Virus record (IMG/VR): IMGVR_UViG_3300010401_000003
Span: 1 to 64,000 of that record
Direction: 5' to 3' (one strand)
Length of the DNA stretch: 64,000 nucleotides
Origin: a virus
Below are positions 25,674-51,943 of this stretch, one piece after another. Under the pieces are notes generated by a model that saw only the letters and a list, made by a program, of their open reading frames with translations, was not told where the DNA came from and made no database searches. How positions within the stretch are numbered: the stretch's first letter is position 1; each line of letters opens with the position of its first letter. The position numbers and the translations under genes are program-made.

Positions 25674-25713
25674 CTCGACCCCGAGTGTCGTTCGAGAGGC
25701 CCGGTCCGGTCAA

Positions 25714-34215: not shown

Positions 34216-35031
34216 TCACCGGGTGAGGAAGATCGCCGCGGCGGCGACGGCTAGAACGGCCAGGACGATGGGGCCCGCGCTCGAAGAGCCCTGACTCGAG
34301 CTCGGCGCGGGAGTCGGCGCCGGCGGCACCGGGAGGGTTTGCGCCGGGGGCGGCAAGGGCGCCGGGGTCACCGGGATCGGCGGCAGCGGCAGCGGCCATG
34401 GAAGCTCGGCTGGGTAGCCCGGTGGCCGCGCTGGAGGCCACGGAGAGCACGGCCAAGTGCCCGGGGGCAAAAGCGAGCATGCGGGGGGCGGAGTCGCGGG
34501 AAAAGCGCCGGTGGGGGGCCAGTCGAGGCCGGTCGCTTCCTTCCAGCCAGGCGGCTCCGGAACGCCCGTCCAATTTTGCGGCGGCGTGGTTTGCCCCAGA
34601 TGCCCGCTTTTGAGCGTCGTGACGGCGGCCCAGGACGCGCAGTCTTTCTGCCAAAATCCCGCATCAGTGACGAAGGAAAACGCCTTTTTCCAGTATCCCT
34701 CGCCCGCGTACCACGCCTCGATCGTGGTCGACGTGCCGGCGGGCAAGTGCGCTTTGACCCACTCGCACGCGGCGACGCGCGGATCTTCGGTCGGTTCGAG
34801 CTCGAGGTTTCCCGAGCTCGAGAAGCCGTTGACGACGAAGTGCCAAACCGGCCGCCTCGGCATAAGGGCCGAGGTGCGCGTCACAAACACTTGAGCGGGA
34901 TTCGGGAGGGAGGAGCGGACGAGCCTCGGGGTAGTCGTTTGCACCTGCACGCGCGAGGCGCTCGGCGCGACGACCACGGCGGAACGCACCACTTGTGCGC
35001 TCAGCGCGCCGGACCATTTCAGGAGGGCCAT
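34216..35031 (-). CDS. W-leader C-terminally anchored membrane protein, Pro/Trp-rich
   Basis: MALLKWSG.., internal GHLGQ, Pro linker, TM PIVLAVLAVAAAAIFLTR. Confidence 0.7.
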   Translation of the reverse strand: MALLKWSGALSAQVVRSAVVVAPSASRVQVQTTTPRLVRSSLPNPAQVFVTRTSALMPRRPVWHFVVNGFSSSGNLELEPTEDPRVAACEWVKAHLPAGTSTTIEAWYAGEGYWKKAFSFVTDAGFWQKDCASWAAVTTLKSGHLGQTTPPQNWTGVPEPPGWKEATGLDWPPTGAFPATPPPACSLLPPGTWPCSPWPPARPPGYPAELPWPLPLPPIPVTPAPLPPPAQTLPVPPAPTPAPSSSQGSSSAGPIVLAVLAVAAAAIFLTR

Positions 35032-35555
35032 TAACTTTTATCCTTGGCAGTCGCGAAGGTTTGCACGAAGAGCTCGACGGCGGCGCTCGCCGCAAGCGAG
35101 TACTTCATGAGGGTTTTCGGATCGTGGACGCCGACGGCAGCGAGACCGATGCCGACTTCGATCGCACGGGAGACGAACGACACGAAAAGCCGGAGCCATG
35201 CGCCGGACTTCCCCGCTCGGATTTCGTCGGCAATCTCGCCGGACGGAAGCGGCTTTTGGCCGCGGTTGATGTAGGCGAAGGTCAGAACCGACGCTTCGAT
35301 CGCGCCTCCGGCCGCGAGCGAGTATTTCACGAGGTCCGTGCCGCGCGCGCCGGCCGCTGCGAGTCCGGCTCCGATGATGAAGGACCGGCCGAAGTAGTGG
35401 AGCATCACGGCCCAAAAGGCGCCTGGCTCTTTCTCGACGAAGGCGTTGGCGCTTTCTTCCGACGGCAGCGTCACGCCCAAAAAGGCGCGATCGATCGCGC
35501 GATCGGCGACCGCGATCGCCGTCGTGTCGATTGGGGTGTTCCACCGGAGCGCCAT
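35031..35555 (-). CDS. Multi-pass membrane protein with internal duplication
   Basis: MALRW..; RSFIIGAGLAAAG..KYSLAA repeated as RAIEVGIGLAAVG..KYSLAA. Confidence 0.7.
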   Translation of the reverse strand: MALRWNTPIDTTAIAVADRAIDRAFLGVTLPSEESANAFVEKEPGAFWAVMLHYFGRSFIIGAGLAAAGARGTDLVKYSLAAGGAIEASVLTFAYINRGQKPLPSGEIADEIRAGKSGAWLRLFVSFVSRAIEVGIGLAAVGVHDPKTLMKYSLAASAAVELFVQTFATAKDKS

Positions 35556-35564
35556 GGCCTCATT

Positions 35565-35972
35565 CTACCTTGAATCCGGGTCCTTTCCGGTGGGTGTGCG
35601 GGATCGGTAGCCGGTTTCGGTGCGCTGGAGACGCACGGCGGGTTGCTCGCGGTCGCTCGAGGGGCGAAATCCTCCGAGGCGCTTGATTCCGTCGATGATC
35701 GATCGGTGTTCTTCGGCGGCGCTCTCGCCGGTCTGCTCGATGGAAGCCGTCAGCCCCTGGACGGCATTGGTCAGGGCTTGCAGCGCCTTGGTGTTGTCGC
35801 CGATCTGATCGGAGAGCTCCTTCATGCGCTCGAGCGTGCCTTCGATCAGACGCTCCTGGTTTTTGGCGGAGGACTGCACGTAGATGATCGCGATCTTTCC
35901 CGCGAACCAAATCACGACGAGCAGGACGCCGAGCGCGCCGAATTGCAGGAGCGTGGGATCGATCACGTTCAT
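35565..35972 (-). CDS. Putative holin-like protein (N-terminal TM + coiled coil)
   Basis: LLQFGALGVLLVVIWF; coupled directly downstream of the endolysin. Confidence 0.5.
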   Translation of the reverse strand: MNVIDPTLLQFGALGVLLVVIWFAGKIAIIYVQSSAKNQERLIEGTLERMKELSDQIGDNTKALQALTNAVQGLTASIEQTGESAAEEHRSIIDGIKRLGGFRPSSDREQPAVRLQRTETGYRSRTPTGKDPDSR

Positions 35973-36742
35973 GCGGCCAGCTTTTGCTTCGCGAGCTCGG
36001 CCTCTTGGATCGCGTGCCACGTGTCCATGCCGACGACGCCGTCGGGCTGTAGACCGTGATAGGCGATCTGGAACGCCTTGACCTTGGCGGCAGTCTTACT
36101 CCCGTACCAGCCGTCATCGTCGATGCCCACGACGCGCTGGACGCGCTTGACGTCTTCGCCCCGGCTCGGGATCGGCACGAGCCAGGACCACTTCAGCACG
36201 CGCGCGAGCGGATCGAAGCCGTCGGGCATCTTTTCGCTGAGTGCGACCGCGGCGCGATTGACCGCCGAGCGGAGAGCCGCGTAGTGATGCGCGACGCGCT
36301 GCGCCTTGGTGGCGCCGAAACCCCGATAGTAGTTGGTGTCGTAAAGGGCTTCGCTCACCGCATACAGATCGCCGGTTTTGGCAGCCTCGAGCACCGAGGG
36401 GCGCTTCACGTACATCACGCGCACGAGGTCGGCCCAGCCGACCTCGGGGGTTGCGTAGCGCCGGAAGCACACCTGATAGGGCACGTTCGTGCCGGTGTTG
36501 GTCGGGTTGGTGTCCGTGTAGAGAAAGCTCGTTGCCGGATTGCAAGGTGGATTGCCAGCCTGGATCGCGCCGATGTTGTTCGAGCCCGCGCCGTCGCCGT
36601 GCCAGCCGGCGCCGTAATCGGTCTCGAGCCAGCCGACACCTTGGCAGGCTTGCAAAACCGCGCGCAGCGGCTCAGCCTGGACGCCGAAGTTTTTTTCGTA
36701 GCCGCGCGTGGTGTAGAGGCGCGCGTCTTTGTGCGTCGTCAT
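35969..36742 (-). CDS. Endolysin: glucosaminidase (GH73-like) domain + peptidoglycan-binding domain
   Basis: WLETDYG..NNIGAIQ..FRRYAT; C-terminal GEDVKRVQ..DGWYGSKT..VKAFQ..GLQPDGVVGMDTW. Confidence 0.85.
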   Translation of the reverse strand: MTTHKDARLYTTRGYEKNFGVQAEPLRAVLQACQGVGWLETDYGAGWHGDGAGSNNIGAIQAGNPPCNPATSFLYTDTNPTNTGTNVPYQVCFRRYATPEVGWADLVRVMYVKRPSVLEAAKTGDLYAVSEALYDTNYYRGFGATKAQRVAHHYAALRSAVNRAAVALSEKMPDGFDPLARVLKWSWLVPIPSRGEDVKRVQRVVGIDDDGWYGSKTAAKVKAFQIAYHGLQPDGVVGMDTWHAIQEAELAKQKLAA

Positions 36743-36882
36743 CGAGCCCTCCTTGCCATTTGCCAAAACAGCGCGATGAAGCCCACGACCAAAACGGCAC
36801 CGATGAAGGTCAAGCGCTCAGAGCGCGGCAGCCGATCGAATGGCAAGCCCAGCGTCATCGGTTTTTCCCAGCGGAGTATCAT
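36739..36882 (-). CDS. 47-aa W-leader membrane peptide (absent from the ORF track)
   Basis: MILRWEKPMTLGLPFDRLPRSERLTFIGAVLVVGFIALFWQMARRAR; ATGA overlaps at both ends. Confidence 0.75.
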   Translation of the reverse strand: MILRWEKPMTLGLPFDRLPRSERLTFIGAVLVVGFIALFWQMARRAR

Positions 36883-37130
36883 CCTCCGATTGGCTTCATT
36901 TGCAGCCACTCACCCGCGGCTTTCTTGTTCGCTATCTCGAAAGAAGCCGCCTCGAAGGCGCGCACCCAAACGGCCGGATCAGTGACCTTGCCGCTGGTCA
37001 GCGCGAAGTCGAGCGCGCTCTGAAGGATCGGCATGATCGTGTCGGCGACGAGCGGCTCCTGCTCGGCGAGGATCAACAAGCGATTGACCAGGCCGAGGTA
37101 GTTTTCCGGAATGGGGACGGGGACGTTCAT
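36879..37130 (-). CDS. Small hypothetical protein
   Basis: MNVPVPIPENYLG..; ATGA overlaps. Confidence 0.6.
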   Translation of the reverse strand: MNVPVPIPENYLGLVNRLLILAEQEPLVADTIMPILQSALDFALTSGKVTDPAVWVRAFEAASFEIANKKAAGEWLQMKPIGG

Positions 37131-37320
37131 TTTTGGCACCTCACCCACTGCTTGAGCCGGTCGTGAAACTCGGCGTCGATTTCCTTCTTGGCTTCGCAGC
37201 GGTCGTCTTGCCCGTGGCACTTTTCGGCGAGGCTTGCGTGATACCAGGCGCCGACCGCGGCCATGTCTTCCACCGAGCACGCTTCATTGTGGACCGAAGC
37301 GCACGCCGAAGCGGCCATCG

Positions 37321-37611
37321 CTAGGAGCCCGATGAGGGCATGCGCACGCGATCGGTTAGAATTTTTATCTTTACCTGGACAGCTACGAAGCCGACACGGA
37401 GACCGACGTGCGGATCGCCGATCATATAGGTCACTTGGACGTAGCAGGTCGGACCCGTGTACTCGCCCGCGTCCGCTGACCATTCCCGCAGCTTCAGGAT
37501 GTCGCCGAGGAGAATCGGAGGTTGCGCTTCGCAGATCAGAAAGTGGAGACGCTTCTCGGCGATCGCCCGGTAGGTGGGGATGTGGAGTTTGATTTCGCGA
37601 AAACCGCTCAT
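37321..37611 (-). CDS. DUF3850/ASCH-PUA-like protein
   Basis: GDILKLREW...YTG....VTY. Confidence 0.7.
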   Translation of the reverse strand: MSGFREIKLHIPTYRAIAEKRLHFLICEAQPPILLGDILKLREWSADAGEYTGPTCYVQVTYMIGDPHVGLRVGFVAVQVKIKILTDRVRMPSSGS

Positions 37612-38300
37612 GCTGCACGACTCACCACTTTCGTTAGCACGTAGATCGCGCCCGCCACCAAGGCCACCAATCCGATCGCTGCGCCCGCACTGGCCCCCTG
37701 GGCAACACCGCCAGATCCGCCGCCACTCGGCATCGGCTCGTTCCGCGCTTTGGTGATCGCCTGGAGGTTCTTGGTCATGGCGGCAATGTGTTTGCTCAGC
37801 GCGAGCTCGAAGTAGTGCGACTCGCGGAGCGTCTTCGAGAAATTCGCGATGTCGCCCATGTTGGCCGCCGCGAGCACCTTCGGACGCTGCTTGTAGAGTA
37901 CCTGGATGAAGTGCGTGAATCCCTCATCGGGCGAAGCGTACTTGCGAAAGCATGCCTGGTAGGCTGTGCTTCCATGCTCGGGACCGCGATGGTCGGTGGC
38001 CTCGAAGCAGCTGCTCGAGCAGGGCGGCAGACCGCACTGCACCGCGCCCATGTTCCAGGTGTTGCAAGTGGTCGTGCCAGCGGGGATGTTTTTGTAGCAG
38101 GCTTGTCCGTAGTAGGACTCGCCGCGCGAAACGGCTTGCGCGAATTGGGCCTCTAGTAACGTCGGCGTTCGGCCGAAAACGACCTTGAACGCGTTTTCGA
38201 TGAAGGTGCGGGCGGAAACGTCGCTTATTTGTGCCGCACCGAGGCCGACTTGGCGCGCGCCAAGCACTCTCACTTCACCGAGCCAAAGAAGCTTCGACAT
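37608..38300 (-). CDS. Membrane-anchored glucosaminidase-like muralytic enzyme (probably virion-associated)
   Basis: Paralog of the endolysin catalytic domain (GESYYG..NMGAVQ..FRKYAS); W...GLGA leader; C-terminal TM. Confidence 0.8.
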   Translation of the reverse strand: MSKLLWLGEVRVLGARQVGLGAAQISDVSARTFIENAFKVVFGRTPTLLEAQFAQAVSRGESYYGQACYKNIPAGTTTCNTWNMGAVQCGLPPCSSSCFEATDHRGPEHGSTAYQACFRKYASPDEGFTHFIQVLYKQRPKVLAAANMGDIANFSKTLRESHYFELALSKHIAAMTKNLQAITKARNEPMPSGGGSGGVAQGASAGAAIGLVALVAGAIYVLTKVVSRAA

Positions 38301-39949
38301 TAGCGCCGACGCTTTCTGCCGCGGGCTCGTCGCTTGTGCGCGCGTTGGGCGGAGCGCTGCACTTTCGGCGAGCGATAGCCCAGTCGCACTACGCGCTCAT
38401 GGGGCGCTGGACCTTGCGGCAAATCGCGGATTCCTGCCTCGGTCGGTCCGCGCCGCAGTCGCCGCGACACCATTGTGGCTGCCGCATCTTGAGAAGGCGC
38501 TCCGCTGACTCGATAAACGGTTCCGTCATGGTTGTCATAGACGTAATACACGCCAGGCGGCGTCTGTGGAGATTCGGCTTCGTCCAGTGGCGTCTTCTTG
38601 AACCAACCGGACCAGAAGGCGTTCTCGTTGCTCGGATTCGAACGTGCCGCTGGCCGCTTCGGCGTGGCCGCTGTAGCACCGCTACTTCCGCCACCGAATA
38701 TCGCCGCGCCGAGACCGAGGAGCGCGAGCGCCCCGACCGCAATCAGGATGCCAGTGTTTCCGCCACTTTCCGAGCTCGAAGGCGTTCCCCCGCCCGGGAT
38801 CGGAGTCGGAGGGATCGGCAGGGGCGTCACGACGCAGAGCTTGCTCACCGGATCCCAATGGAAGCCGGGATCGCACTGCGTGACGTCGCTCGGATTTCCC
38901 GGAACGGGAGTCGGCACGCGCGGAAGCGGCACTTGCGGAGTCGGCGCCGACGGAACCGGAGCGGATGGCGCCGGCGCGCTCGGAAATCCGGGGTTCGGGA
39001 GCTGTCCGGGGACGATCGTGATGCCCTTGGCCTGCGCCCAGACTTTCAACGAGTAAAGGCCCTGGGTCGTCAGGTCTTGCCACGCGATTTCGTTTTTCGT
39101 GGTGGGATTCGGGAGCGGTGGCGCCCATCCGGATTTGTTCCACCAGTTGTAAAAGTTCGCGAGGGTCCAGCCGTCGCGATCGCCCCAGACGAGCGAAATG
39201 TCGGCCGGCTGAAGACCATAGCTGCCGATCGAATTGTTTCCGTCGGTTCCGTTCCATGCGGCGAGAATCGCCTTGGCCATCGCGACGTCGGCGTCGGGAA
39301 GAGCGCCGAGATCGCCGGGACCTTGGATGGTCACGGGAGGCCGATAGCGCGAGGTCGATGGAAAGATCGGAGCGATCGTTGTGAGAGGCTGGCGATATCC
39401 CGGGGGAGTTGGCATCGGTGCCGGGAGAGTGGGCAGGTAGGGAGGAATGCACCCGAAGCTGCCGTCGTCATGGACGATCTTCGAGTAGCCCGGAGGGCAC
39501 GTGGTTTTGATTTGGGTGCCGGTGCTCAGAACTTCGTTGAGACTCTTCGAGACAGGGTCATAGCAATAGTAGTTAGCATTCCCACTGCCGGCGCTTTTGC
39601 TGAAATCGAAGGGTTCGAAGTTGGCGCCTTTCGGCACGAATTCGAGCGCGCACACCTTGAGCGGCTTCGATGTTTTCTTGGACCATTGCTCATAGAGCGC
39701 GCGCATGCGCTGTACGGCGACCCAGCGCAAAACCGTGTTGAAGGTGATTCCGCTCTGAAGTGGGAAATCTTCATGCACATAGTCATCGCCACCCGGGAGC
39801 GGGAAGACGGGGAATGGAGCCGCTGCGTTGAAAACGTAAATCTTCCACGCACCGCTCGTGTTCCACCACTGCCACTCGGCTGGCGTCATGCCGAGCTGCC
39901 CCGGCGCGCCGAGCACTTGGACCTTTTCTTCTAGCCATCGCATCGACAT
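38300..39949 (-). CDS. W-leader multi-domain membrane protein with basic tail
   Basis: MSMRWLEEKVQVLGAPGQLG; internal GDLGAL precedes a domain paralogous to 39956..40576; TM; SNPSNENA; Arg tail. Confidence 0.75.
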   Translation of the reverse strand: MSMRWLEEKVQVLGAPGQLGMTPAEWQWWNTSGAWKIYVFNAAAPFPVFPLPGGDDYVHEDFPLQSGITFNTVLRWVAVQRMRALYEQWSKKTSKPLKVCALEFVPKGANFEPFDFSKSAGSGNANYYCYDPVSKSLNEVLSTGTQIKTTCPPGYSKIVHDDGSFGCIPPYLPTLPAPMPTPPGYRQPLTTIAPIFPSTSRYRPPVTIQGPGDLGALPDADVAMAKAILAAWNGTDGNNSIGSYGLQPADISLVWGDRDGWTLANFYNWWNKSGWAPPLPNPTTKNEIAWQDLTTQGLYSLKVWAQAKGITIVPGQLPNPGFPSAPAPSAPVPSAPTPQVPLPRVPTPVPGNPSDVTQCDPGFHWDPVSKLCVVTPLPIPPTPIPGGGTPSSSESGGNTGILIAVGALALLGLGAAIFGGGSSGATAATPKRPAARSNPSNENAFWSGWFKKTPLDEAESPQTPPGVYYVYDNHDGTVYRVSGAPSQDAAATMVSRRLRRGPTEAGIRDLPQGPAPHERVVRLGYRSPKVQRSAQRAHKRRARGRKRRR

Positions 39950-39955
39950 GGAACA

Positions 39956-40576
39956 TCACCTCAAGAGCAGGGCAGCAAGACCGAGCACCGCGCCGACGAT
40001 CGCAAGGACGCCCACCGCCCCAATGCCCTCCGAGCTCGGCGCTGACGTGATCGGCGCGGGCGGCGCCGGTAGGGGCGTCTGATTCGTCGGAACCGGAACC
40101 GGGATCGGTACGGGCACCGGAACTGGTTGAGGTTGCGTGCGCGGACCGCAGGCCGCGAGACAGGTCGCGAGATTCGCGAGATCGCCCGCGTACTTCTGTT
40201 GACACGCAAGCGCGCAGTTGACGGATGGCGCCGGAACTTGGCCGGGATTGATGACGCCCTTTTCCACGCCCCATTGCAGAAGCGCCTGGAGATGCTCGGG
40301 CTTCAGATCGATCCAGGTGTACGAGCCGGGCGCGGGGAAGACCGCGGGCTGCTTGTTGTTGGCCTTCCACCAATTGGCGAAGCAGGCGAGCGCGTTTCCA
40401 TCGCGCGTTTTCCACGTGGTCGGATCGACGTCGTCCGGCTCGAGGCCGTAGCCGGTGACGCAATTGTTGCCGTCGGTTGCCACGAACGAAGCGAGCAACG
40501 CCTTGGCTTGCGCGTTCGAGGGCGCGTCGAGAGCACCCAAGAAGTCGACTTTCTTTTCTAGCCAGCGCATGCCCAT
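39956..40576 (-). CDS. W-leader C-terminally anchored membrane protein
   Basis: MGMRWLEKKVDFLGAL; Cys helical hairpin; PV repeat; TM. Confidence 0.75.
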   Translation of the reverse strand: MGMRWLEKKVDFLGALDAPSNAQAKALLASFVATDGNNCVTGYGLEPDDVDPTTWKTRDGNALACFANWWKANNKQPAVFPAPGSYTWIDLKPEHLQALLQWGVEKGVINPGQVPAPSVNCALACQQKYAGDLANLATCLAACGPRTQPQPVPVPVPIPVPVPTNQTPLPAPPAPITSAPSSEGIGAVGVLAIVGAVLGLAALLLR

Positions 40577-40579
40577 GAC

Positions 40580-41158
40580 TCACCTCGAGAGAAAGAATGC
40601 CGCGAGGCCGATCACGATACCCGCGATCGCGAGCGCCACGCCGGTGCCGCCGCCGGACGCCGCGGGCGTCGTAGAGCTCGCGGGCGGCGTCGTCGTGCCA
40701 CCACCGCCGCCAGATCCGGGACGGGGGATTTTCTTACCGCCGGGCGTGCCTTGCGTCGTGGGACCGAAGCCGCACTTCTGGCCGCACTGAATCGCGGCGG
40801 CTTTGAGCGCCGCTTCGTCGGTGCCTACCGCTTCTTGCTGGAAGGCGTCCATACATGCGTTGAAGCACGGGCTCACCTTTGCGCCGACCTTCTGCATTTG
40901 CTCGTGGTCGACCAAGATCCCCGCGCCGCACGCTTCGGTCATGCACTGGTTCACGCACGGCCAAATCAGAAGTCCGCCCCAGCCGCCGATGCCGATCGCG
41001 GTGCAGATCGCGTAGCAGGCGTCCTGGTTATAGAGGTTTGCCTGGCACGCGGAAGTGGTCGGCTCGGTGAAAAGTCCGACGCCAACAGGCGCAGCAAGGC
41101 GGCCGTTCCAGCGAACTGAGGAACGCGGGCCGACCTGGCCGCGCCAAGCTACGATCAC
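40580..41158 (-). CDS. W-leader Cys-rich C-terminally anchored protein
   Basis: GTG start IVAWRGQVG..GRLAAPVGVG; CxxxC repeats; TM. Confidence 0.7.
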   Translation of the reverse strand: MIVAWRGQVGPRSSVRWNGRLAAPVGVGLFTEPTTSACQANLYNQDACYAICTAIGIGGWGGLLIWPCVNQCMTEACGAGILVDHEQMQKVGAKVSPCFNACMDAFQQEAVGTDEAALKAAAIQCGQKCGFGPTTQGTPGGKKIPRPGSGGGGGTTTPPASSTTPAASGGGTGVALAIAGIVIGLAAFFLSR

Positions 41159-41526
41159 GGGTTTGCTCTCATGTGCCCGCGTCCGCCCGCGAACATGATC
41201 GCCGCGGCGACCGCGAGCGCTCCGCCGAGCAACCACACGATCACAGGGACGCCCGCCGTCGCCGACGAGCTCGCGGGCGCGGGGGCCGGCGCGGGAGTCG
41301 GGGTCGGCGTCGGCGCGGGGACCGGAATGCCGGCGTTGATGACTTCGCCGATTTTAGCGGGGAGCTCCGCCGGGGTGAGGCCGCACGCCTTGAGGCACGG
41401 CTCGATGCACGTGAGGAACGGGCGAGCGTTGGCGCACGATTGCGCGCAAAGCGCCTCGCAGTTCGAGAGGGCGCCGAGGCGCCCGTTCGGGCGGAGGGCG
41501 ACTTGTCCTGACCAGGATTGGATCAC
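41155..41526 (-). CDS. W-leader Cys-rich C-terminally anchored protein
   Basis: MIQSWSGQVALRPNGRLGA; CxxxCxxxC; PT/PA linker; TM; ends RANP. Confidence 0.7.
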   Translation of the reverse strand: MIQSWSGQVALRPNGRLGALSNCEALCAQSCANARPFLTCIEPCLKACGLTPAELPAKIGEVINAGIPVPAPTPTPTPAPAPAPASSSATAGVPVIVWLLGGALAVAAAIMFAGGRGHMRANP

Positions 41527-42734
41527 GCTGCCGCCCTTCTACGCTTCGGGGCCGAGCGCCGACGCTTTTGCGAACGAGCTCGCGCCGCGCGCGCGGGCTG
41601 CTTCGGGAGGTTCGGGGCACGCATGCCCAAGAAGATCGCGCCGATGGCCGCGCCGATGCCGAGTAGCCAACCCCATCCGGAGCCGCCACCGATCCCGGCG
41701 GTGGTTGCCGTGGATTCGCAAGATCCGTCAGCTGCGCGCTTGTAACCCGTCGGGCACTTGTCGACGCACGATCCGGACACGCACTCCTTGGTCGGATCGG
41801 TGCACGGCGTTGCGGGCGTGCACTCCGGAGCGGGCGGCGGAGGAGCACCACCGCCGCTTCCCGCTGCGGCTTCGCACTCGTTCAGTTGCTGTTGGATTTG
41901 GTTGACCTGCGCTTGCGCTGCGTTTCGCGCTGACACTTGTCCGGCATATTGCGCGTCGAGAGCTTGGCCGGTGGCCGTGTCTCCGTTTTGATACGCCGCG
42001 ATGCGCGCGGCATCGAGGTCGACGATGTAGCTCTTGATTCCCGCCAGTTTTGCCTTAGCGGCCTGCAACTGAGCATTTAGCGCGTCGCACGCTTCGTTTT
42101 GCCCGAGCCGCCCCTCGCCCGGACCGAACAAGAACGGAACCGGCGGGCGCGTGATGCGCGTCTGAAATTGCGTGGTCGTGACGGTCGTTCCGCCGAACGG
42201 CTGAGTCCCGAACGGGCTCAGCGGGATGCTTCGCCGAAAGAACGACGTGAACGGGAACGGATAGACGAACGGGATCGGATTGGGCGGAGGCGGCTGGTAG
42301 TTTCCGATCGTCGTCTTGACGCCGTCGTAGGTGCAGTACGAGACCGGCTGCATCAGGATGTTGGTCTTGGTGTACGAGCCGCACACGGCCTTGTATTTCC
42401 AGACCGGAGTGGCGCCCGGTGGAATGCCGCCCGGCTGCCACGAGTTGAACGCCTGCGTGATGCCCGCGTAGCCCTGCGCGTGCGTTCGCAGATGCGGCCC
42501 GCTGGTGCCGACGAGCTGGCCGTTGTTGTAAAAGTAGTAGGTCCAGTACTCGAGCTCGTAAGGCGCACCGACGCCTTCCTTCGGTCCGAGCAACTGCTGA
42601 GGCCCGCCGGCTCCGCCGCGATCGTGCAAGAACACCGGCCGGAGATTCGGCGGCATCACCGCGCTGCCGAAGTACGCTCGCGCGCTCGGTCCGGTTTGCG
42701 TCTTCACCGGGTCAATCCATTTCACGAGCGCCAT
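41523..42734 (-). CDS. W-leader membrane protein with coiled coil, EGF-like Cys domain and Arg tail
   Basis: MALVKWIDP; internal GRLGQ; TM WGWLLGIGAAIGAIFLG; RRRSAPKRRR. Confidence 0.7.
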   Translation of the reverse strand: MALVKWIDPVKTQTGPSARAYFGSAVMPPNLRPVFLHDRGGAGGPQQLLGPKEGVGAPYELEYWTYYFYNNGQLVGTSGPHLRTHAQGYAGITQAFNSWQPGGIPPGATPVWKYKAVCGSYTKTNILMQPVSYCTYDGVKTTIGNYQPPPPNPIPFVYPFPFTSFFRRSIPLSPFGTQPFGGTTVTTTQFQTRITRPPVPFLFGPGEGRLGQNEACDALNAQLQAAKAKLAGIKSYIVDLDAARIAAYQNGDTATGQALDAQYAGQVSARNAAQAQVNQIQQQLNECEAAAGSGGGAPPPPAPECTPATPCTDPTKECVSGSCVDKCPTGYKRAADGSCESTATTAGIGGGSGWGWLLGIGAAIGAIFLGMRAPNLPKQPARAARARSQKRRRSAPKRRRAAA

Positions 42735-43624
42735 CAGCGTGGTCCTTTCGGTAAATCTTCGCAGCACGGGAAAAGCTCGACGGCCAAGCCGCCCGCGACT
42801 CGTCCGTAAACGACCGGCAAGGGTGAATCGAGCTCCTCGAAGGCAGAGACGAACTGATCCTCGGGGCGACCGACGCCCGCAGGGATGTTGAGGCCACAAC
42901 GGCTGACCGGATTGGTCTGATGCACCGAGGCGTAGAAGGTCACTCGCCCAGGGCCGAGCACCGGGATCGAGAGCTCGCGCGCCGTCGGGTCGAGATAGCG
43001 CATGTCGCGCCACGTCCCGAGCAGGTCGACGTCAGCGCCAGGCGGGATGCCGGCGCCGGGGGGCTTGTACGGCAGGAACGGCGGCACATAGAGCAACGCC
43101 GCATCCTGGCCGCTCATCGAAGGGCTCGCGCCGTCCGGTTGCGCGGGATCGTTGACCGACTCGGGGGAGAAGCGGTGGGGCTCGTAGCGCAAATGCCAGG
43201 AGATGTTTCCGTCCTGGAAGTGCCAGCCGGGGGAAGTGATCTCGAGCTCGACCGGGACCGGTCCGCACTCGGTGCTGCGCGATTGAGGCACGGTGCGAAT
43301 CGTCGCGTACTGCCAAATGCCGCGGATCACGATCGCGCGCTTCTTGTCGATTTCGACTTGAAGCAACCGAATCAAGTAGCGCTCAGCTTGCGATCGCGTC
43401 GCGTTGTCGGGCACGCGCACGCCAAGCGCGCTCGTGTCTCCCAGCCACGGCGTCGAACCGATGCCGAGCAAGTCGGGATCGAACGACTGCGTGAAGAGCT
43501 CGATCACCGCGCGGCAGTCCCAACGCGGATCGGCGCTCCCCAAAAACGAGGGATGGCCCACGACGCCCGCGCGCTTGGCGCGCTCGGCAGAGAGAGAGAT
43601 TACGGATTTGGCGTTTGCCGACAC
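42734..43624 (-). CDS. Beta-rich structural protein, candidate minor capsid/penton
   Basis: Alternating hydrophobic strands; lies in the operon after the capsid candidate. Confidence 0.4.
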   Translation of the reverse strand: MSANAKSVISLSAERAKRAGVVGHPSFLGSADPRWDCRAVIELFTQSFDPDLLGIGSTPWLGDTSALGVRVPDNATRSQAERYLIRLLQVEIDKKRAIVIRGIWQYATIRTVPQSRSTECGPVPVELEITSPGWHFQDGNISWHLRYEPHRFSPESVNDPAQPDGASPSMSGQDAALLYVPPFLPYKPPGAGIPPGADVDLLGTWRDMRYLDPTARELSIPVLGPGRVTFYASVHQTNPVSRCGLNIPAGVGRPEDQFVSAFEELDSPLPVVYGRVAGGLAVELFPCCEDLPKGPR

Positions 43625-43638
43625 GGGCTATTCCCCTT

Positions 43639-44352
43639 TCAGGGGCAGCCCGGCCCCAAATCCCTCGGAGCGAAAACGCCCTCTGCCTGGAGCTCGTCGA
43701 TGATCTGCGTGAAGTCGCAGCCGTTGTAGAGACCGGTCGGAAGCCGCGTCCCGTGAAAGGTGATAATCGCCTCGGTCGGTACTTCGTCGGCTTGAAGAGT
43801 GCGGAGGTTCGTGAAGAGGGCGTCGAAGGTGGCTGAGCACTTCAAGACCAGGCCGGCGGGGCAGACGCACTCGAAGACCGCTTCGATGTTCTCGAGGGGG
43901 GTCGGCTCGGTGTTGATCAGGTAGTTGCAGAACGAGTGGATGATGAGCGAGTTCAGGTCGATGTTGGGGTTCAGGCGATTGAAGTAATCGGACTGAGCCT
44001 TCCAGATCGATCCTGCCGCGAAGTTCGGGCGGCGCACCGTGTAGGTGACGCGCCGGATCCAAATGTCGCTTTCGACCGTGCCGAGCATCTGACCCAGCAC
44101 GGGCTTGTCCGCCGTGGTCGCATCCCAACGCGCTTTCACGCTGAGCATCACCCAGCCGTTGGTCTCGGTCACCAGCCAGCCGTCGCCAGCCATGCGGTAG
44201 CCGAGACCCTTTTTCGCGGCCTGCAAGAGCGTGTGCGCCAGCCGTGGCTCTTGGAGGGCGATCCCTCCGAGCCATTGCGGCGCCGCCGCTCGGCGCGCCC
44301 GGGCGAGCGCGGCCGAAACCTCGTCGCCCGGAGCTGTGTTGGGTGCGTTCAC
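43639..44352 (-). CDS. Beta-rich structural protein, candidate second jelly-roll capsid protein
   Basis: DIWIRRVTYTV, GLVLKCSATFDALF, AIITFHG strands. Confidence 0.4.
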   Translation of the reverse strand: MNAPNTAPGDEVSAALARARRAAAPQWLGGIALQEPRLAHTLLQAAKKGLGYRMAGDGWLVTETNGWVMLSVKARWDATTADKPVLGQMLGTVESDIWIRRVTYTVRRPNFAAGSIWKAQSDYFNRLNPNIDLNSLIIHSFCNYLINTEPTPLENIEAVFECVCPAGLVLKCSATFDALFTNLRTLQADEVPTEAIITFHGTRLPTGLYNGCDFTQIIDELQAEGVFAPRDLGPGCP

Positions 44353-44393
44353 TGGAGTGTGGCCTTGCCGATGACCTTACTTACCCGACGACC

Positions 44394-45578
44394 TTACTTC
44401 GCCGAGGCGAGGAGGTTGTCGAATTGCTTCTTGACGTCTTCCGGCAGGCCGTTCAGGGCGCCGCGGTTCGCGATGAGCTTGCTCGTCAGGTACGAGCCGA
44501 TGCCCACCTGCTGGTAGAGCATTTCGAGCGCGCTTCCCGAGGTCACTCCCGCGAGGTACTCCACGCAAGCCGCCGGCACGAGGTCGTAGCCCGCGAGGAC
44601 CGCGCCGATCGTGAAACAGCCACCCGGCACCGTGTAGATCCCGGCGTTGCCCGAGCCGCACTCGAGCGTGTCCGTGAACTGGCTGCTCGGCAGAGTCGGA
44701 GTGGCGCAGTCGAGGACCGCGTCGCGCCGCATCGCCGGGAAGAAGCAGCAATCACCCTCGACGCGCGTGAAACGGACGTCGATGGTCATGCCGGGCAACC
44801 AAAGGATCGGGAACGGCAGCGGATAGCAGCGGTTCGAGATGCCCTTGGTGTGCTGGCTTCCCCACATCGCTTCCGCAGTCGGCGCGGGCATGCACTCGCT
44901 ACCAGCGGCGGTGTTCTGGGGGATGAATTGCTTGTTGCAACCCTTGGCCACGAGCACGTCGTTGACGTCGCGATTGAACGGAGTCGTCGAGATGAGCGAG
45001 GTGCCGCTCCCGACGAATTCCATGGTCGCTCCGACGAGACCCATGACGTGGGCCGCTTCCTCGAAAATCTGGAAATGCCGTCCGATGAACATCGAGACGC
45101 GGTACGCCTGGAAGAACTTCTCGATGATGTTCCAGGTCGGGTAACCCCATGCGAGCACCGCGTTGTGCTCGTCGAGCGCGCCGGTGCATCCGGTCACGCA
45201 AGGGGTCGGTCCGCCCGAGGCGACCACGTTCTTCATGACGCCCGTGAGCGCGAAGCCCTGGCCCTCTGCGGTCGCCAAGATGCCGAAGCCCATCATGAGG
45301 AACGGAGTCTCGACGGTCGTCCCGCGCGAGAGATTGGTCTGGCGACCCGGGCACGCTTGCGGCTGGTCGAGCGTGAAGAGTCGGATTTCCCCGGGGAATG
45401 CCGCGTCGAATTCCTCGGGCGTCATCGGCAGTTGGTACTGCGCGATGTCGTAGAGGCGAGCGGTCAAGCGCGAGAGCGGGCTCTTGCCGGCCGTGATCTG
45501 GCCGAGGATGCCGCCCTTGTGGGTCGGCTCGATCTGCGAAAACTGCTTGTGGTCTGCCTTGATAACTTCGGTCGCCAT
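44394..45578 (-). CDS. Candidate major capsid protein (jelly-roll type)
   Basis: Strongly biased codon usage; beta-strand pattern LYD..IRLFT..TNL..PFLMMGFGI and YPLPFPILWLPGMTIDVRF; no HK97 features recognised; inferred from position and pattern. Confidence 0.5.
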   Translation of the reverse strand: MATEVIKADHKQFSQIEPTHKGGILGQITAGKSPLSRLTARLYDIAQYQLPMTPEEFDAAFPGEIRLFTLDQPQACPGRQTNLSRGTTVETPFLMMGFGILATAEGQGFALTGVMKNVVASGGPTPCVTGCTGALDEHNAVLAWGYPTWNIIEKFFQAYRVSMFIGRHFQIFEEAAHVMGLVGATMEFVGSGTSLISTTPFNRDVNDVLVAKGCNKQFIPQNTAAGSECMPAPTAEAMWGSQHTKGISNRCYPLPFPILWLPGMTIDVRFTRVEGDCCFFPAMRRDAVLDCATPTLPSSQFTDTLECGSGNAGIYTVPGGCFTIGAVLAGYDLVPAACVEYLAGVTSGSALEMLYQQVGIGSYLTSKLIANRGALNGLPEDVKKQFDNLLASAK

Positions 45579-47542: not shown

Positions 47543-48130
47543 TTATGGCCAGCGAAATCCGTGCTCGTCAACAATACAGCCGCGCGGAAGCGGCAAACGC
47601 CACCCCAAAGTGCGCTTGCTATAACGCACCTCAACGGGCGGATCGTATTCGTGCTCGAACGGCTTGTCGAAGCCCGGACGCCGATAGCGAATGAGACGCA
47701 CGCGCGCTAAGCGCGCCCACGGTCCCTCGGGAATTTCCACCGATCCGTAAGTGAGAGGAAGTGGGCGGTCGTTCTGATCGACGAAGTACTTTTCTGCGTC
47801 ATCGAGCACGTCGCCAGGTGCGTTTTTCGCACCTCCTCCGCGCGCTCGAACAATATACAAATCGCACCGGTCCAAAAGTGCGCCGGTCGTGTCGTGCACG
47901 AGCACATACCCCCGCGGGAAGGTCACGTCGGCCGCCGGCATGCGCGGTTCCCAGAAGACTTCGCGCTCTCCGTTTGGACCGGTCGCGCGCACGATGCGGC
48001 GCGCGCCGGAGTTTCGCACGCGTTCGACGGACACGAATTGGATGTTCGTGCCGCGCACGATCATGTGGTGCGTGTAACACGCACCGGTCGTGCAATCTTC
48101 AGCTTCGACGATGCGGCCGGAGTCCGTCAT
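47543..48130 (-). CDS. Hypothetical protein in the structural operon
   Basis: TAATG-coupled ORF. Confidence 0.6.
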   Translation of the reverse strand: MTDSGRIVEAEDCTTGACYTHHMIVRGTNIQFVSVERVRNSGARRIVRATGPNGEREVFWEPRMPAADVTFPRGYVLVHDTTGALLDRCDLYIVRARGGGAKNAPGDVLDDAEKYFVDQNDRPLPLTYGSVEIPEGPWARLARVRLIRYRRPGFDKPFEHEYDPPVEVRYSKRTLGWRLPLPRGCIVDEHGFRWP

Positions 48131-48996
48131 TAGGCCGCTCGCGCCAATTGACGACTCGGCGGAAGCGCGCGCGAGCTCGAGCGCGCACCCGCAGGCGGCA
48201 CCAAGCGCACGAGTGCGTAAAGCACACCGAGACCGAGCGCGACCAGCGCGACGGTCTTAATCGTGTTCGTGATGTCGGTAGTGGGCTGACTGCCGGCTTT
48301 GATTTGCTCGACCTTCTGCGCGCGCACCGCAGCGGCGCCGGTGTAGATCGATTGATTGAGCTTCGCGGCTTGGTCGGGCGTGCATTTTCCGGTCGTCACG
48401 CACTCGTAGGATTTTTCCGCGATCGTGCGCATCGTCTTTTGCTCGGCGACGTCAGTGATGTTGTTGACCGCTTTCTCGACCGCCCAGTACGCGGGCAGAG
48501 CGAGCACCGTGACGCCCAAGGTGGTAGCCCACACGATCGCGGGCACTCCGACTTGCCCTTGCACGTGCGTTTGCTCACCCGCGGGATTCACGATGATCGG
48601 CACGTCGCCATTGAGCGCCAAGCGCACGACGTCCGATGAGAGCCCCTCGATTTCGAATTGATTCTTTTCCGTGTTCCAAGCGACTTTGCGCTTTCCGGCG
48701 ATCGCGTCGTTTAGGGCGTCGGTGATGATCTTCACCATCGCCATCGCGTCGACTGCGTTCTGATCGAGATCCGAAGACCACGCCGACGCGCTCGACATGC
48801 CCGGGACGGCGCCACCCTCCGGGCCGGCGCCGTCGACCAGGAACGGCAGGCCGAGATTCTGCCGGACCGTCTTTAGCCCGGTGTAGGCGGCGACAGCTCG
48901 CGTCCACGAGCCTTGCAGGTTGTCGCGGAGCGCCGTGAGGTACGCTTCCCAGGCTTTTTCGTCGGCCGGCTGGCCCAGCCATCGCAGCTTTTTCAT
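48130..48996 (-). CDS. W-leader membrane protein (2 TM)
   Basis: MKKLRWLGQ; TMs AIVWATTLGVTVLALPAYW and VALVALGLGVLYALV. Confidence 0.7.
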   Translation of the reverse strand: MKKLRWLGQPADEKAWEAYLTALRDNLQGSWTRAVAAYTGLKTVRQNLGLPFLVDGAGPEGGAVPGMSSASAWSSDLDQNAVDAMAMVKIITDALNDAIAGKRKVAWNTEKNQFEIEGLSSDVVRLALNGDVPIIVNPAGEQTHVQGQVGVPAIVWATTLGVTVLALPAYWAVEKAVNNITDVAEQKTMRTIAEKSYECVTTGKCTPDQAAKLNQSIYTGAAAVRAQKVEQIKAGSQPTTDITNTIKTVALVALGLGVLYALVRLVPPAGARSSSRALPPSRQLARAA

Positions 48997-49164
48997 TTGT
49001 TGAGTCTCGCTCGGTAGATGTTGATTGCCAGGGAAGTCGCTGAAATCAGCAGGCCCACGATCGCAAACCACTCGATCCGCGAGAGCCTATGGCCGTCGCC
49101 CGGGATTTCCTCGGGAGCGGCGGAAACCTGACCGGACCAGCGCAAAATGGCCATCGCTCGCCCT

Positions 49165-50157
49165 CTAGAGTAGCGCCCAAATCACGAGCGCGACAATGCC
49201 GGCGCCGATCGCCAAGGGCGCGATGCTCGATCCGCCGCCTCCGCCGCCGCTCCCGGCGGCGGCGACATTCTTGAAGTCGATCTGCGATTTCAGCTTTTCG
49301 ATGAGCGGCTCCATCGATTTGCTCGGGAGCTCCGTCAAGCACTGCGGATCTTCACCGTGCATGTTGCTCGGCGTCTTCGGGTCGAAGACGTTGAAGAACC
49401 CCGCTGGGCAGTCGCCCTTACTCTGAAACCAGCTCGAGGCATTCTCCATGCGCCCGACCGCGAACCAATCGATCGGCTCGCCGGGCTTGGCGATGGGGCC
49501 GAAGTTACCGTTGAAGTAGGTCAGCCAAACGTAGTCCTTGCAGGTCAGCTTTTCGTTGACGATGCCGAGCTTCTTGGCCACCGCGCACTCGTCGAGCGCC
49601 GTCTTCGTCAACTCGAACTTCTCATACGCTTGCGCCGCCGCGTAGCGCTCGGCGCTCGGCGCAAACTTCGAGAACACCGGCGCCGGTGGCAAGCCCGCTT
49701 CAGTCAGCGCCACGTCGGAAGCGCCTTGGCTGATGGCCAGATCGCGGAGCGTCAAATACGACTTGACGGCAAGGATGCCCTTGGCCGCGCGCTTGGCACG
49801 CGGGGCGGTGAAGTCGTTCCAGGTTTCCGAAACCAAGTCCTCCATGGTCGATCCCTTGGCCACAGGGATCGATTTTCCGATGAAGCCGCCGATGATGCCG
49901 CCCAAGATCGCGCAGCCGCCCGCGACTGGAGCAGTCACTACGAAGGCCGAGCACGCCGCAGCGCCACCAATTGCGCCGCCCACCTCGCCGTAGGCTTTCA
50001 GATCCGCCGAGCTCGTGCCGCCCTTCCGCTCGATGATCTCTCTCGTGAGCGGATTGGTTGCCTTGTCCATTCCGGAATACGCGCCGAGGCCGACGGGCCG
50101 CCTCGAGCTCGGCGAAAGCACGAGCGGGACAGACGCATTCCAGATAAGGGCGGACAT
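49165..50157 (-). CDS. W-leader C-terminally anchored membrane protein
   Basis: MSALIWN..PVGLGA; Gly-zipper segment; Gly linker; terminal TM. Confidence 0.7.
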   Translation of the reverse strand: MSALIWNASVPLVLSPSSRRPVGLGAYSGMDKATNPLTREIIERKGGTSSADLKAYGEVGGAIGGAAACSAFVVTAPVAGGCAILGGIIGGFIGKSIPVAKGSTMEDLVSETWNDFTAPRAKRAAKGILAVKSYLTLRDLAISQGASDVALTEAGLPPAPVFSKFAPSAERYAAAQAYEKFELTKTALDECAVAKKLGIVNEKLTCKDYVWLTYFNGNFGPIAKPGEPIDWFAVGRMENASSWFQSKGDCPAGFFNVFDPKTPSNMHGEDPQCLTELPSKSMEPLIEKLKSQIDFKNVAAAGSGGGGGGSSIAPLAIGAGIVALVIWALL

Positions 50158-50176: not shown

Positions 50177-50923
50177 CTAGCCGGGACAGCGAGCAAGCGT
50201 GAGCGCTCTTTCGAGCGTCCGATCACCCGGCTTCCACACGACGCGAGCTCGGAGGCCGCGCAAGCCGTCAACGCCAATGAAAACGCCCTTGTCGACGAAG
50301 TTTAGCCGGTCGGGATCGAAGGACCTTCCGCCGCCCGCGCCGATGCACACTTCGTCGTCGCAAATCACCTTCACGTTTGGGACGGAGAGGATCCGCTCGT
50401 AGGTGAAGGGGACGCATTTGCCGAGCTGGTAGTCGGTCGACGGATCGCCGTAGTGCCAGCGGCCGTCCAAGTGCGCGGCGCACAGCACGTGCTCGATGTT
50501 GTGCTCGTCGTCGTACGCATGGCCCACCACCAAGGTGTGGATCCCGACGGACATCCAAGCCGCGCCGAGGAGCGTCGCGACGCCGTCGCAATCGTCGCCA
50601 CGAATGCAAACCTTGTTGGGGTTGGTCTTCGGATCGCACGCGAGCAAGGTCGCCGCCGGCATGTATTCGGCCCCGATTGGGTCGGGCACCCATAATTTCT
50701 TCTGGACGGCGGAAAGGAGAATGCGCGCGCGGTCGTTCGGGGTCTTGGCGCTCGAGAGGCCGCGTTCGCGGGCCACGTCGAGCATTTCGATCGCCCAAGT
50801 GCGCACGCCCGGATCGATCGCGCCCTTCGAGACGCGCTTGGCCACTTCGTCGAGCGAGCTATTGACGCCCGCTTTGCCGAATGGGTGCTCGCGTTCGGTT
50901 ACAGCAGTCCAAGGGGCGGGCAT
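50177..50923 (-). CDS. Transglutaminase-like cysteine protease
   Basis: Cys-His-Asp triad GDDCDG..EHVLC..WHYGDPS. Confidence 0.8.
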   Translation of the reverse strand: MPAPWTAVTEREHPFGKAGVNSSLDEVAKRVSKGAIDPGVRTWAIEMLDVARERGLSSAKTPNDRARILLSAVQKKLWVPDPIGAEYMPAATLLACDPKTNPNKVCIRGDDCDGVATLLGAAWMSVGIHTLVVGHAYDDEHNIEHVLCAAHLDGRWHYGDPSTDYQLGKCVPFTYERILSVPNVKVICDDEVCIGAGGGRSFDPDRLNFVDKGVFIGVDGLRGLRARVVWKPGDRTLERALTLARCPG

Positions 50924-50940: not shown

Positions 50941-51255
50941 CTACTTGACGGGCGTCAGCAACGCGCGCGGAAGCGACCAGCCGCGGGTCAATCGGTCATG
51001 GACGGTCGACTTCTTGAACCCGAACGCGCGAGCCTTGGCGGCGACGCTGCCGCATTTCTCCCACGGCTTGAAACGCCGGAAGCCGAGCTTCAGCGCTCGG
51101 CGACGCCGAGCTCGACAGTCTTTACACTCGCCGCGCCGGCCATCAGCGCAACGGCCATCGCGCTGGAATTCATCGATCGGGAGCCACAGGCGACAGCGCG
51201 GATTGTTGCACCGCTTCAGACGTCCAGACCGCGGCTCGACGCGCGGGATCTCCAT
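50941..51255 (-). CDS. Zn-ribbon + DNA-binding tail typical of HNH homing endonucleases, no nuclease core
   Basis: KRCNNPRC..PIDEF..DGRRGECKDC; STVHDRLTRGWSLPRALLTP. Confidence 0.55.
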   Translation of the reverse strand: MEIPRVEPRSGRLKRCNNPRCRLWLPIDEFQRDGRCADGRRGECKDCRARRRRALKLGFRRFKPWEKCGSVAAKARAFGFKKSTVHDRLTRGWSLPRALLTPVK

Positions 51256-51502: not shown

Positions 51503-51943
51503 TCAATGGAGATTCCTTTCGGGGTGGGCGAAGTCTATGTGTGCTGCGCACGCGGCGGAGCACACCGCTTCGTGGTCTTCGTTGACGTACCAGTCGTGCT
51601 GGAAGGACACCCATTTGTGATCTCCGAGCACGACCACTTCGGATTTCTCGCCGCAACAGGCGCAGGTCACCGGCATCAGGACGATGCCCTTTTCGCGCGC
51701 GCGCTTCTTCCAGTAGTTCAGGAGAGGTTGGGCGAGGAGACCGTGCAGCGGCCAGATCATCAACTGCACGAGCAGGCCGACCATCGACCACAAGAGCACC
51801 CAGGCGCGCGCGGTCGGCCAGCGGCGCATCTGATTTTTCACCACGCTCTTTACGCCGCGGCCCACGTCGGGATTGACGAGAAAAAGGAGCGCCTGGCCCG
51901 CAATCCCGCCCAGCCACAACCAGAAAAGCAACGACACGATCAC
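51503..51943 (-). CDS. Membrane protein with C-terminal Cys cluster
   Basis: Two TMs; CACCG..VCSAAC. Confidence 0.6.
   Translation of the reverse strand: MIVSLLFWLWLGGIAGQALLFLVNPDVGRGVKSVVKNQMRRWPTARAWVLLWSMVGLLVQLMIWPLHGLLAQPLLNYWKKRAREKGIVLMPVTCACCGEKSEVVVLGDHKWVSFQHDWYVNEDHEAVCSAACAAHIDFAHPERNLH

Follow-up and report, generated by a model that had tools for sequence, protein, structure and literature searches.

The stretch of DNA analysed here, hereafter the window, comprises bases 1-64000 of the 73,644-bp virus record IMGVR_UViG_3300010401_000003, which has a 123-bp direct terminal repeat at its ends and a CheckV completeness estimate of 100%. Our subject is a gene on its minus strand, at 50177-50923, together with a short N-terminal leader shared by the viral membrane proteins encoded beside it. 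An earlier interpretation made from the letters alone (the sequence-only reading) took the gene product for a transglutaminase-like cysteine protease at the head of the structural operon and a candidate maturation enzyme. The open reading frame (ORF) starts with ATG, encodes 248 amino acids (aa) and has a GC content at third codon positions (GC3) of 0.82, against an overall GC of ~0.63. Downstream on the same strand lie three genes for membrane proteins whose leader is built around a tryptophan (W leader), a 195-aa gene, an Arg-rich/LysM gene, a trio of 394, 237 and 296 aa, and nine more W-leader genes.

Fold and family of the enzyme

The translation contains the motifs RGDDC112DGV, NIEH145VLC and WHYGD160PS, and with them the intact Cys-His-Asp (C-H-D) triad that the sequence-only reading had claimed. 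No signal peptide or hydrophobic N-terminal segment was found in the window enzyme, whose N-terminus reads MPAPW. An AlphaFold2 (AF2) model built with 30 homologues reached a predicted local distance difference test (pLDDT) of 85.6 and a predicted template modelling score (pTM) of 0.81; its last ~50 residues are not confident. The predicted layout is a helical N-terminal part (~16-94), a Cys-His-Asp core (~95-200) and a low-confidence C-terminal tail with W230. A helix at 112-125 opens at C112, and strands 143-152 (with H145) and 155-159 lead to D160, the layout of a papain-like alpha+beta core.

Structure prediction had been proposed as a check on the protease assignment, and the model does match transglutaminase-like folds, with a best Z of 12.5. 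The top Foldseek matches in the PDB were 3kd4 and 3isr (putative Cys proteases), PNGase, Rad4/XPC, TG2, LapG, TglA and arylamine N-acetyltransferases, at E values from 2e-4 to 1e-2; all matches at E<=0.001 belong to the transglutaminase-like superfamily. Among 48,161 chains compared with VIA-align the best was again 3kd4 (Z 12.5, 147 residues, root-mean-square deviation (rmsd) 3.4), followed by FXIII (11.4), TG3 (10.9), TG2 (10.7), PNGase (10.4), LapG (9.4), PeiP (8z4f, 8.5), PeiW (8jx4, 8.2) and vasohibin (8.2), and the top 36 rows were almost all of transglutaminase-like or N-acetyltransferase fold. In the ESM Atlas most look-alikes belong to clusters of viral proteins labelled 'transglutaminase-like' (score 0.96, 180 features in common). 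Given the AF2 model and the Foldseek, VIA-align and ESM Atlas results, the modelled enzyme can be placed securely in the transglutaminase-like superfamily, with its papain-like Cys-His-Asp fold. The reaction cannot be read from the fold, because the fold houses proteases, isopeptidases, transglutaminases, deamidases and acyl-transferases.

Domain databases are less direct. The window enzyme had no match to Pfam Transglut_core (PF01841) at E<=0.1, nor did any of 28 long family members at E<=0.001. Among 55 distant relatives, 33 match PF01841 at E<=0.05 and 14 of these exceed the gathering score (at least 23 bits); gp34 of phage SSIP-1, described below, matches it too, and the link of the window enzyme to Transglut_core is thus transitive. 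Searches of PHROGs and NCBIfam gave no match for the enzyme, Pfam gave no significant one, and the family profile (from alignment A1) found only chance matches among PDB sequences (E 0.48 or worse). None of PF06035, PF13471, PF03412 and PF12386 matched any of the 11 + 28 + 55 proteins scanned; PF06035 turned up solely in one ESM Atlas look-alike cluster, where it is in the minority (26%). A Pfam scan of 41 window ORFs revealed no other protease family.

A word-indexed search returned 52 close relatives of the enzyme, none of them named, and an exhaustive search returned 472 representative clusters (50% identity) at E<=0.001, with 310 reaching E<=1e-10. We aligned 196 sequences (P0001-P0197 without P0053) to a hidden Markov model (HMM) of alignment A1. 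The triad is C-H-D in 184/196 and C-H-E in 9/196, which together make 193/196; the other three are gaps or misalignments. C112 and D113 are each present in 193/196 sequences and D111 in 185/196. D81, E86, D111 and D113 are near-invariant, and four further Cys (96, 106, 188 and 193) are common in the family. The enzyme is under strong purifying selection.

An insertion of 136-347 aa lies precisely between D111 and C112 in 29 of the 196 relatives, and nowhere else in the domain is there a large insertion. It typically starts with CF(A/P)EGTL and finishes with DVTVS(Q/N); the last residue is Gln in 20/29, Asn in 8/29 and different in one, which is probably misaligned. The penultimate His that is usual in inteins occurs in none of the 29. 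Four insertion-bearing members match Hint or LAGLIDADG in Pfam. Intein-bearing proteins include P0021-P0028, P0044, P0047, P0058, P0065, P0066, P0071, P0072 and P0082. With this insertion point, the catalytic Cys serves as the +1 residue of the intein. Inteins typically sit in functionally critical conserved sites, and their position on the catalytic Cys is a further sign that both the residue and the gene are indispensable. In our best reading the gene encodes an active papain-like cysteine enzyme, probably associated with the virion or with a membrane.

Gene neighbourhood, leaders and fusions

The gene order described by the sequence-only reading holds, in that the enzyme gene lies directly upstream of the run of W-leader and capsid-candidate genes. 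Its placement at the operon head is only half right: genes of 113 aa and 631 aa that are syntenic with the enzyme in distant relatives come before it, and the gap to the upstream ORF is 17 bp, so the enzyme is not first in the conserved block. The conserved order is 113-aa, 631-aa, enzyme, (330-aa), 288/313-aa, 195-aa, Arg-rich/LysM 616-aa, 394-aa, 237-aa and 296-aa, and it is kept in viral contigs with only 35-50% protein identity. In a scan for promoters and terminators neither exceeded chance (3 promoter-like sites where 1.4 were expected, and 18 terminator-like sites where 15.4 were), so that no such signal marks a boundary. Using orthologues of the 296-aa protein (alignment A4) as bait we retrieved nine viral loci, of which eight were scanned (L030-L037). 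The enzyme is encoded on the same strand in 7/7 scanned loci with at least 7.5 kb of upstream sequence, L032 ending too early; four of these seven (L034-L037) were retrieved independently of the enzyme. The enzyme is a core gene of the lineage.

Twelve genes of this module open with M-x3-5-W, and 11 of the 12 products have predicted membrane segments, mostly a C-terminal anchor. Examples of the leader are MKKLRWLGQ, MAILRWSGQ, MSALIWNAS, MSKLLWLGE, MSMRWLEE, MGMRWLEK and MALVKWID; in many a (V/R/G)-L-G-A element follows 8-20 residues further on. The capsid-candidate trio and the 195-aa and 616-aa proteins are untagged. The leader genes differ in their codons and have unrelated upstream DNA, so conservation is at the peptide level, and we rejected duplicated start regions (shared DNA) as the cause of the common N-termini. 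In this virus the distance between Met1 and the tag hardly varies. Diverged relatives carry the tag as well; their orthologues and neighbours keep [W/Y/R]-L-[G/A/S] at 4-12 residues from Met1.

A similar element stands behind the catalytic domain in close family members. Of these, 60/93 have W-[LIV] in the 60 aa that follow the conserved domain end (G-x-F-V-G-V), compared with 39/264 background windows; it is often doubled, as in RWLGEVRWLGD, and in many members a long extension then follows. Tails are longer than 130 aa in 79/142 family members, and 59/142 end in a membrane anchor. The column of W230 in the window enzyme is the place where fused relatives have a W...LG linker.

In distant fused enzymes the entire C-terminal extension is homologous to the tagged 288-aa neighbour (hhalign of A2 against A7: probability 99.9%, E 3.8e-33, 242 columns). 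The homology spans residues 15-268 of the neighbour, beginning directly after its leader, and the neighbour's HMM matches 45/196 family members. Another fused set resembles the tagged 330-aa neighbour (hhalign of A5 against A6: probability 96.7%, E 3.8e-10), residues 35-97 of which match the segment right after the linker; the HMM of this neighbour matches 9/196 family members. Pairwise BLAST of the 330-aa neighbour against the fused forms is weak (E 0.011 and 2.0), the profile-profile comparison alone being significant, and phmmer with the same protein found only five stand-alone homologues. In both fusion types the homology begins just past the neighbour's leader, and the junction reads W-x9-LG or G-L-(I)-G. 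W227, L237 and G238 of the junction are invariant in nine fused forms, and the most distant fused forms have GTGLGQ, FGLGN, or SGLIG three times over. The leader element thus lies between the peptidase domain and the membrane protein whenever both form one chain. The proposal that the enzyme processes LG leaders gains specific, if indirect, support from these fusions to homologues of two tagged neighbours, with W/G-L-G at the junction.

Table 1. Location of the enzyme gene, its key codons and the associated features. Coordinates are those of the window unless a locus is named.
Feature	Position	Strand	Basis or remark
Gene for transglutaminase-fold cysteine enzyme	50177..50923	(-)	ORF, translation, AF2 model, fold matches
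Codon of catalytic Cys112	50588..50590	(-)	Codon checked; D111/D113 on either side; intein site in relatives
Codon of catalytic His145	50489..50491	(-)	Codon checked; H in 196/196 sequences
Codon of catalytic Asp160	50444..50446	(-)	Codon checked; D 187/196, E 9/196
Codon of W230, post-domain tail ARVVWKPG	50234..50236	(-)	W in 81/96 sequences with a residue there
330-aa membrane protein, MSALIW...PVGLGA	49165..50157	(-)	Gly/Ala/Cys-rich hydrophobic hairpin and C-terminal anchor (transmembrane prediction)
53-aa ORF, MAILRWSGQ	48993..49154	(-)	One predicted membrane segment
288-aa membrane protein, MKKLRWLGQ	48130..48996	(-)	N-terminal [W/Y/R]-L-G conserved in 27 orthologues
Block of nine further W-leader genes, candidate substrates	34216..42734	(-)	N-termini and hydropathy
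W-leader genes of this block	34216-35031, 35031-35555, 36739-36882, 37608-38300, 38300-39949	(-)	
W-leader genes of this block, continued	39956-40576, 40580-41158, 41155-41526, 41523-42734	(-)	
Untagged 394/237/296-aa trio, capsid-shell candidates	42734..45578	(-)	GC3 0.80-0.87 (highest); synteny in L004-L006
Catalytically dead paralogue of the enzyme core	13345..13551	(-)	Within 613-aa repeat protein 13087-14928
Intein-split enzyme loci in relatives	L005:8993-10000, L006:10325-10633 (approximate)		Split visible in DNA

One relative comes from a cultured phage. In 50,697 phage records the sole homologue of the enzyme was gp34 of SSIP-1 (L008, JN880423; tblastn E 5e-5, 24% identity over 87% of the query). 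The family HMM scores gp34 at 28.8 bits with C, H and D aligned, and Transglut_core scores it at 29.6 bits. Its GenBank label is 'structural protein', it has a C-terminal membrane anchor and, as in the window, its gene lies upstream of virion-protein genes. Just after the catalytic domain gp34 carries RGMGE, an [RG]-[ML]-G element. Four small SSIP-1 proteins (ORF36, gp37, ORF52 and gp53) have G[ML]G at residues 17-34. G-[ML]-G may be the SSIP-1 counterpart of the W...LG leader. SSIP-1 differs in being a 43.8-kb halophilic phage whose gp34 has an anchor of its own and in which no W tags were seen; by tblastn at E<0.01 the enzyme gene is the one match between it and the window virus.

SSIP-1 is described as a tailless, membrane-containing phage (PMC6356626). 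The lineage that carries the enzyme is one of undescribed tailless soil phages, known as viral contigs of 40-100 kb, with SSIP-1 as its sole cultured relative, and its viruses probably contain a membrane. No terminase, portal or packaging ATPase family was matched among the window ORFs covered by the general family scan. The genome of the window virus was also recovered as DASRAP010000433.1 (73,663 bp), with a 100% identical enzyme, binned in a Gemmatimonadaceae metagenome-assembled genome; this binning is a weak hint at the host.

Candidate functions

We favour, at a probability of about 0.42, the reading that the enzyme is a leader peptidase acting on the shared W...L-G leader of the viral membrane proteins. 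It would recognise the short W...L-G element (G-L-G in distant lineages) that heads about a dozen mostly tail-anchored proteins and would cut at or just after L-G, with Leu in a hydrophobic S2 pocket and Gly at P1. Tagged proteins would be processed in trans, and in fused precursors the enzyme would free itself in cis at the element between the two parts. Papain-like enzymes usually choose a hydrophobic P2 residue, and x-L-G therefore fits papain-like cutting. That the enzyme serves as the maturation enzyme of the whole lineage, removing the W...LG leader from about a dozen tail-anchored proteins and freeing itself from fused precursors, is a possibility we regard as somewhat more doubtful.

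Several known enzymes offer partial parallels. LapG, of the bacterial transglutaminase-like cysteine proteinases (BTLCP, MEROPS C93, PF06035), shares the fold (4fgo, Z 9.4, rmsd 3.9 over 140 residues), the C-H-D triad and acidic residues beside the catalytic Cys. It is described as a protease with a processing role, which takes off the N-terminal portion of one particular membrane-associated protein (PMC4359373). LapG is periplasmic, calcium-dependent and regulated by LapD, and it cuts at a different motif, di-alanine; the phage enzyme has neither a signal peptide nor a PF06035 match. The lasso-peptide leader peptidase McjB (MEROPS C96, Transglut_core3, PF13471) and the C39 double-glycine leader peptidases (PF03412) are described as transglutaminase-/papain-like Cys peptidases, each relieving its own set of precursors of a short N-terminal leader that ends in a small residue (PMC10318531). 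They act on small secreted peptides, compared with a dozen viral membrane proteins here; no lasso cyclase or RiPP recognition element (RRE) was found among the window ORFs scanned with Pfam, and an ABC-transporter partner was likewise not seen there. The adenovirus protease, a Cys enzyme packaged in the virion, processes a large number of structural precursors at (M/L/I)-x-G-G/x sites. Papain-like leader proteases of RNA viruses, such as Lpro (PMC10318531) of foot-and-mouth disease virus (FMDV), resemble the fused forms in the succession of protease, small-residue cleavage site and downstream protein, with release in cis. For the adenovirus and FMDV enzymes the likeness is functional only, as both belong to other papain-like families and were not among the fold matches.

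Several observations weigh against a leader peptidase. No membrane anchor is present in the window enzyme, and L-G is missing from its tail, VVWKPG. Under a lax start-codon rule the W tag is found in 11/17 module ORFs against 19/83 outside, an enrichment of only p = 0.0013. The residue after W-L-G varies: Q is the most frequent, but A, S, E, D, G, V, R and K are seen there too. In the most distant lineages (L035-L037) the enzyme is present and the neighbours have no obvious W-L-G N-terminal tags; the enzyme is therefore older or broader than the W tag. On co-occurrence, which the sequence-only reading had suggested as a check, the enzyme accompanies the capsid gene in 7/7 loci and the tags recur in relatives, but these three lineages have the enzyme without obvious W tags. 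Neighbours in the L013/L014 clade use [YF]-x-S-L-G, whereas two related enzymes placed in this clade on similarity alone, P0035 and P0038, have tails ending in RWLD or RWIV, so strict co-variation of enzyme tail and tags is not seen. Moreover, the fusions fit equally well a permanently membrane-anchored enzyme for which W...LG is a docking peptide. A complex prediction of enzyme residues 1-225 with the first 32 residues of the 288-aa protein scored 0.01 (mark 0.32), which speaks neither for nor against binding. We keep to the stated probability because such anchors are possible, because distant lineages lack obvious W tags, because strict co-variation is missing, and because we infer that the element is cleaved, that this enzyme cleaves it, and where the scissile bond lies.

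The anchors of the 59/142 members, and SSIP-1 gp34 as an anchored protein annotated as a virion structural component, would also suit an envelope enzyme of the virion, which would cut (iso)peptide bonds of host peptidoglycan, or an envelope protein, at entry or lysis, with W...LG unrelated to catalysis. PRD1-type phages carry membrane-bound lytic enzymes in their virions. The modelled fold matches the virus-encoded PeiP and PeiW (MEROPS C71; Z 8.5 and 8.2), psiM2 PeiP is matched in BFVD, and both enzymes are described as cleaving pseudomurein (PMC10318531). PeiW and PeiP, however, have N-terminal wall-binding repeats and act as lysins, whereas the phage enzyme has no PF12386 match and no cell-wall-binding domain, LysM and PG_binding_1 being found on other viral proteins. 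Two paralogous candidate wall hydrolases are already encoded at 35969-36766 and 37608-38300. In the absence of a signal peptide, an anchored catalytic domain would be expected to stay on the cytoplasmic or capsid-facing side. This explanation also leaves the leader element at the fusion junction unaccounted for, and we consider it unlikely.

More improbable is a true transglutaminase or ligase that would cross-link, for example, the Gln after W-L-G to a capsid Lys or an amine lipid, and so staple membrane proteins to the shell or stabilise the virion; cross-linking of virion proteins was the alternative named by the sequence-only reading. Genuine transglutaminases are among the best VIA-align matches (FXIII, TG3 and TG2), behind 3kd4, and Q is the residue most often found after W-L-G (WLGQ). 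Many tags, however, are without a Gln close to the motif, and what follows W-L-G varies; for this reason we downgraded WLGQ as a transglutaminase substrate tag (Q-tag). In animal transglutaminases a Trp follows the catalytic Cys and favours attack by an amine over attack by water; this Trp is absent from the window enzyme, which has C-D-G-V. Most characterised small bacterial members of the fold are reported to be hydrolases (PMC10318531).

Least credible to us is an uncut docking or sorting signal, such as a plug binding to the capsid shell or to a patch of viral membrane, with the enzyme acting elsewhere, for instance on a host protein as a protease, deamidase or acyl-transferase, and riding into the virion by the same W...LG: the MPAPW start and the tail W of the enzyme, the near-fixed distance of the tag from Met1 in this virus, the deamidases and N-acetyltransferases housed by the fold, and the conservation of the enzyme in lineages without obvious W tags would all suit it, but fused forms retain the L-G core at their junctions even where the lineage has no W, there is no known candidate for a host target, and the scheme is less economical than an enzyme acting on the motif beside which it is repeatedly fused.

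Membrane-containing tailless phages (PRD1, PM2, P23-77 and SSIP-1) are not known to use a maturation protease in their assembly, and our literature search found no paper tying a transglutaminase-like enzyme to phage virions or virion maturation. Were it the maturation enzyme of the whole lineage, it would be the first maturation protease known from a tailless bacterial virus that contains a membrane, and among prokaryotes it would correspond to the adenovirus protease, although built on another fold. If it trims the common leader from the viral membrane proteins, it would be a viral addition to the short list of transglutaminase-fold processing peptidases. It would then represent a new sorting-and-processing system for building a viral membrane, and its gene would be a marker by which a phage lineage that is widespread but uncultured could be recognised (472 representative clusters, 50% identity).

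Other genes and motifs of the window

A second substrate class suggested by the sequence-only reading, ENP sites, found no such connection: nothing links the enzyme to ENP beyond the over-representation of the tripeptide. ENP occurs nine times in 16,059 aa against 1.9 expected (~5-fold), in the 616-aa ORF at 45681-47531 (-) and in seven other ORFs. The 616-aa protein has LENPG at 26-30 and 210-214 and NENPT at 130-134, which bracket and divide its Arg-rich region, and its orthologues retain x-N-P-[VIG] near the N-terminus. ENP may mark a site of processing or autocleavage.

The AF2 model of the 296-aa member of the untagged trio is beta-rich, with a beta sandwich (pLDDT 60.6, pTM 0.70). Its fold matches are weak and jelly-roll-like (HHIV-2, SPV1 and STIV), the best, HHIV-2 6h82_b at Z 6.3, lying under the noise mark; the capsid label of the trio hence rests on weak similarity together with synteny. 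The 237-aa capsid candidate (43639-44352, (-)) has an internal PQWLGG at residues 26-30 after a GTG start, and its orthologues align from residue 28. Either its start has been called too far upstream or this protein also has a leader.

A catalytically dead copy of the enzyme core was found by a genome search (E 1.5e-12) and by BLASTP (37% identity over residues 109-184). The Cys is replaced by Leu/Gln and His145 by Arg, and Asp160 is retained. The 613-aa protein that contains it (13087-14928, (-)) consists of ~13-aa Gly/Ala/Leu-rich repeats, the dead core, one membrane segment and, last, a tail rich in Arg.

Two ORFs separate the 631-aa gene from the enzyme gene and have no equivalent at the corresponding position in L004-L006: one of 104 aa, Cys-rich and similar to endonuclease VII/HNH (50941-51255, (-); phrog_1035, E 2.8e-7), and a 146-aa membrane ORF (51503-51943, (-)). 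The pair may be an insertion of a free-standing homing endonuclease beside a gene that bears inteins elsewhere.

The ORFs at 35969-36766 and 37608-38300, both on the minus strand, encode paralogous proteins sharing a Cys-containing domain. The former has PG_binding_1 (E 4e-10) and no tag, the latter a W leader and a C-terminal anchor, and they look like a soluble and membrane-bound pair of wall hydrolases.

A sugar-modifying cluster at 24399-31615 (-) comprises a C-methyltransferase (Methyltransf_14, E 3e-48), a small methyltransferase, a 1045-aa multi-glycosyltransferase and two GT1-like genes, which suggests glycosylated virion or host-surface components. The 509-aa protein encoded at 55254-56783 (-) has a weak match, below the cutoff, to a rolling-circle Rep (REP_ORF2-G2P, E 3.6e-4), and a C-5 cytosine DNA methylase (E 3e-39) is encoded at 58950-60116 (-).

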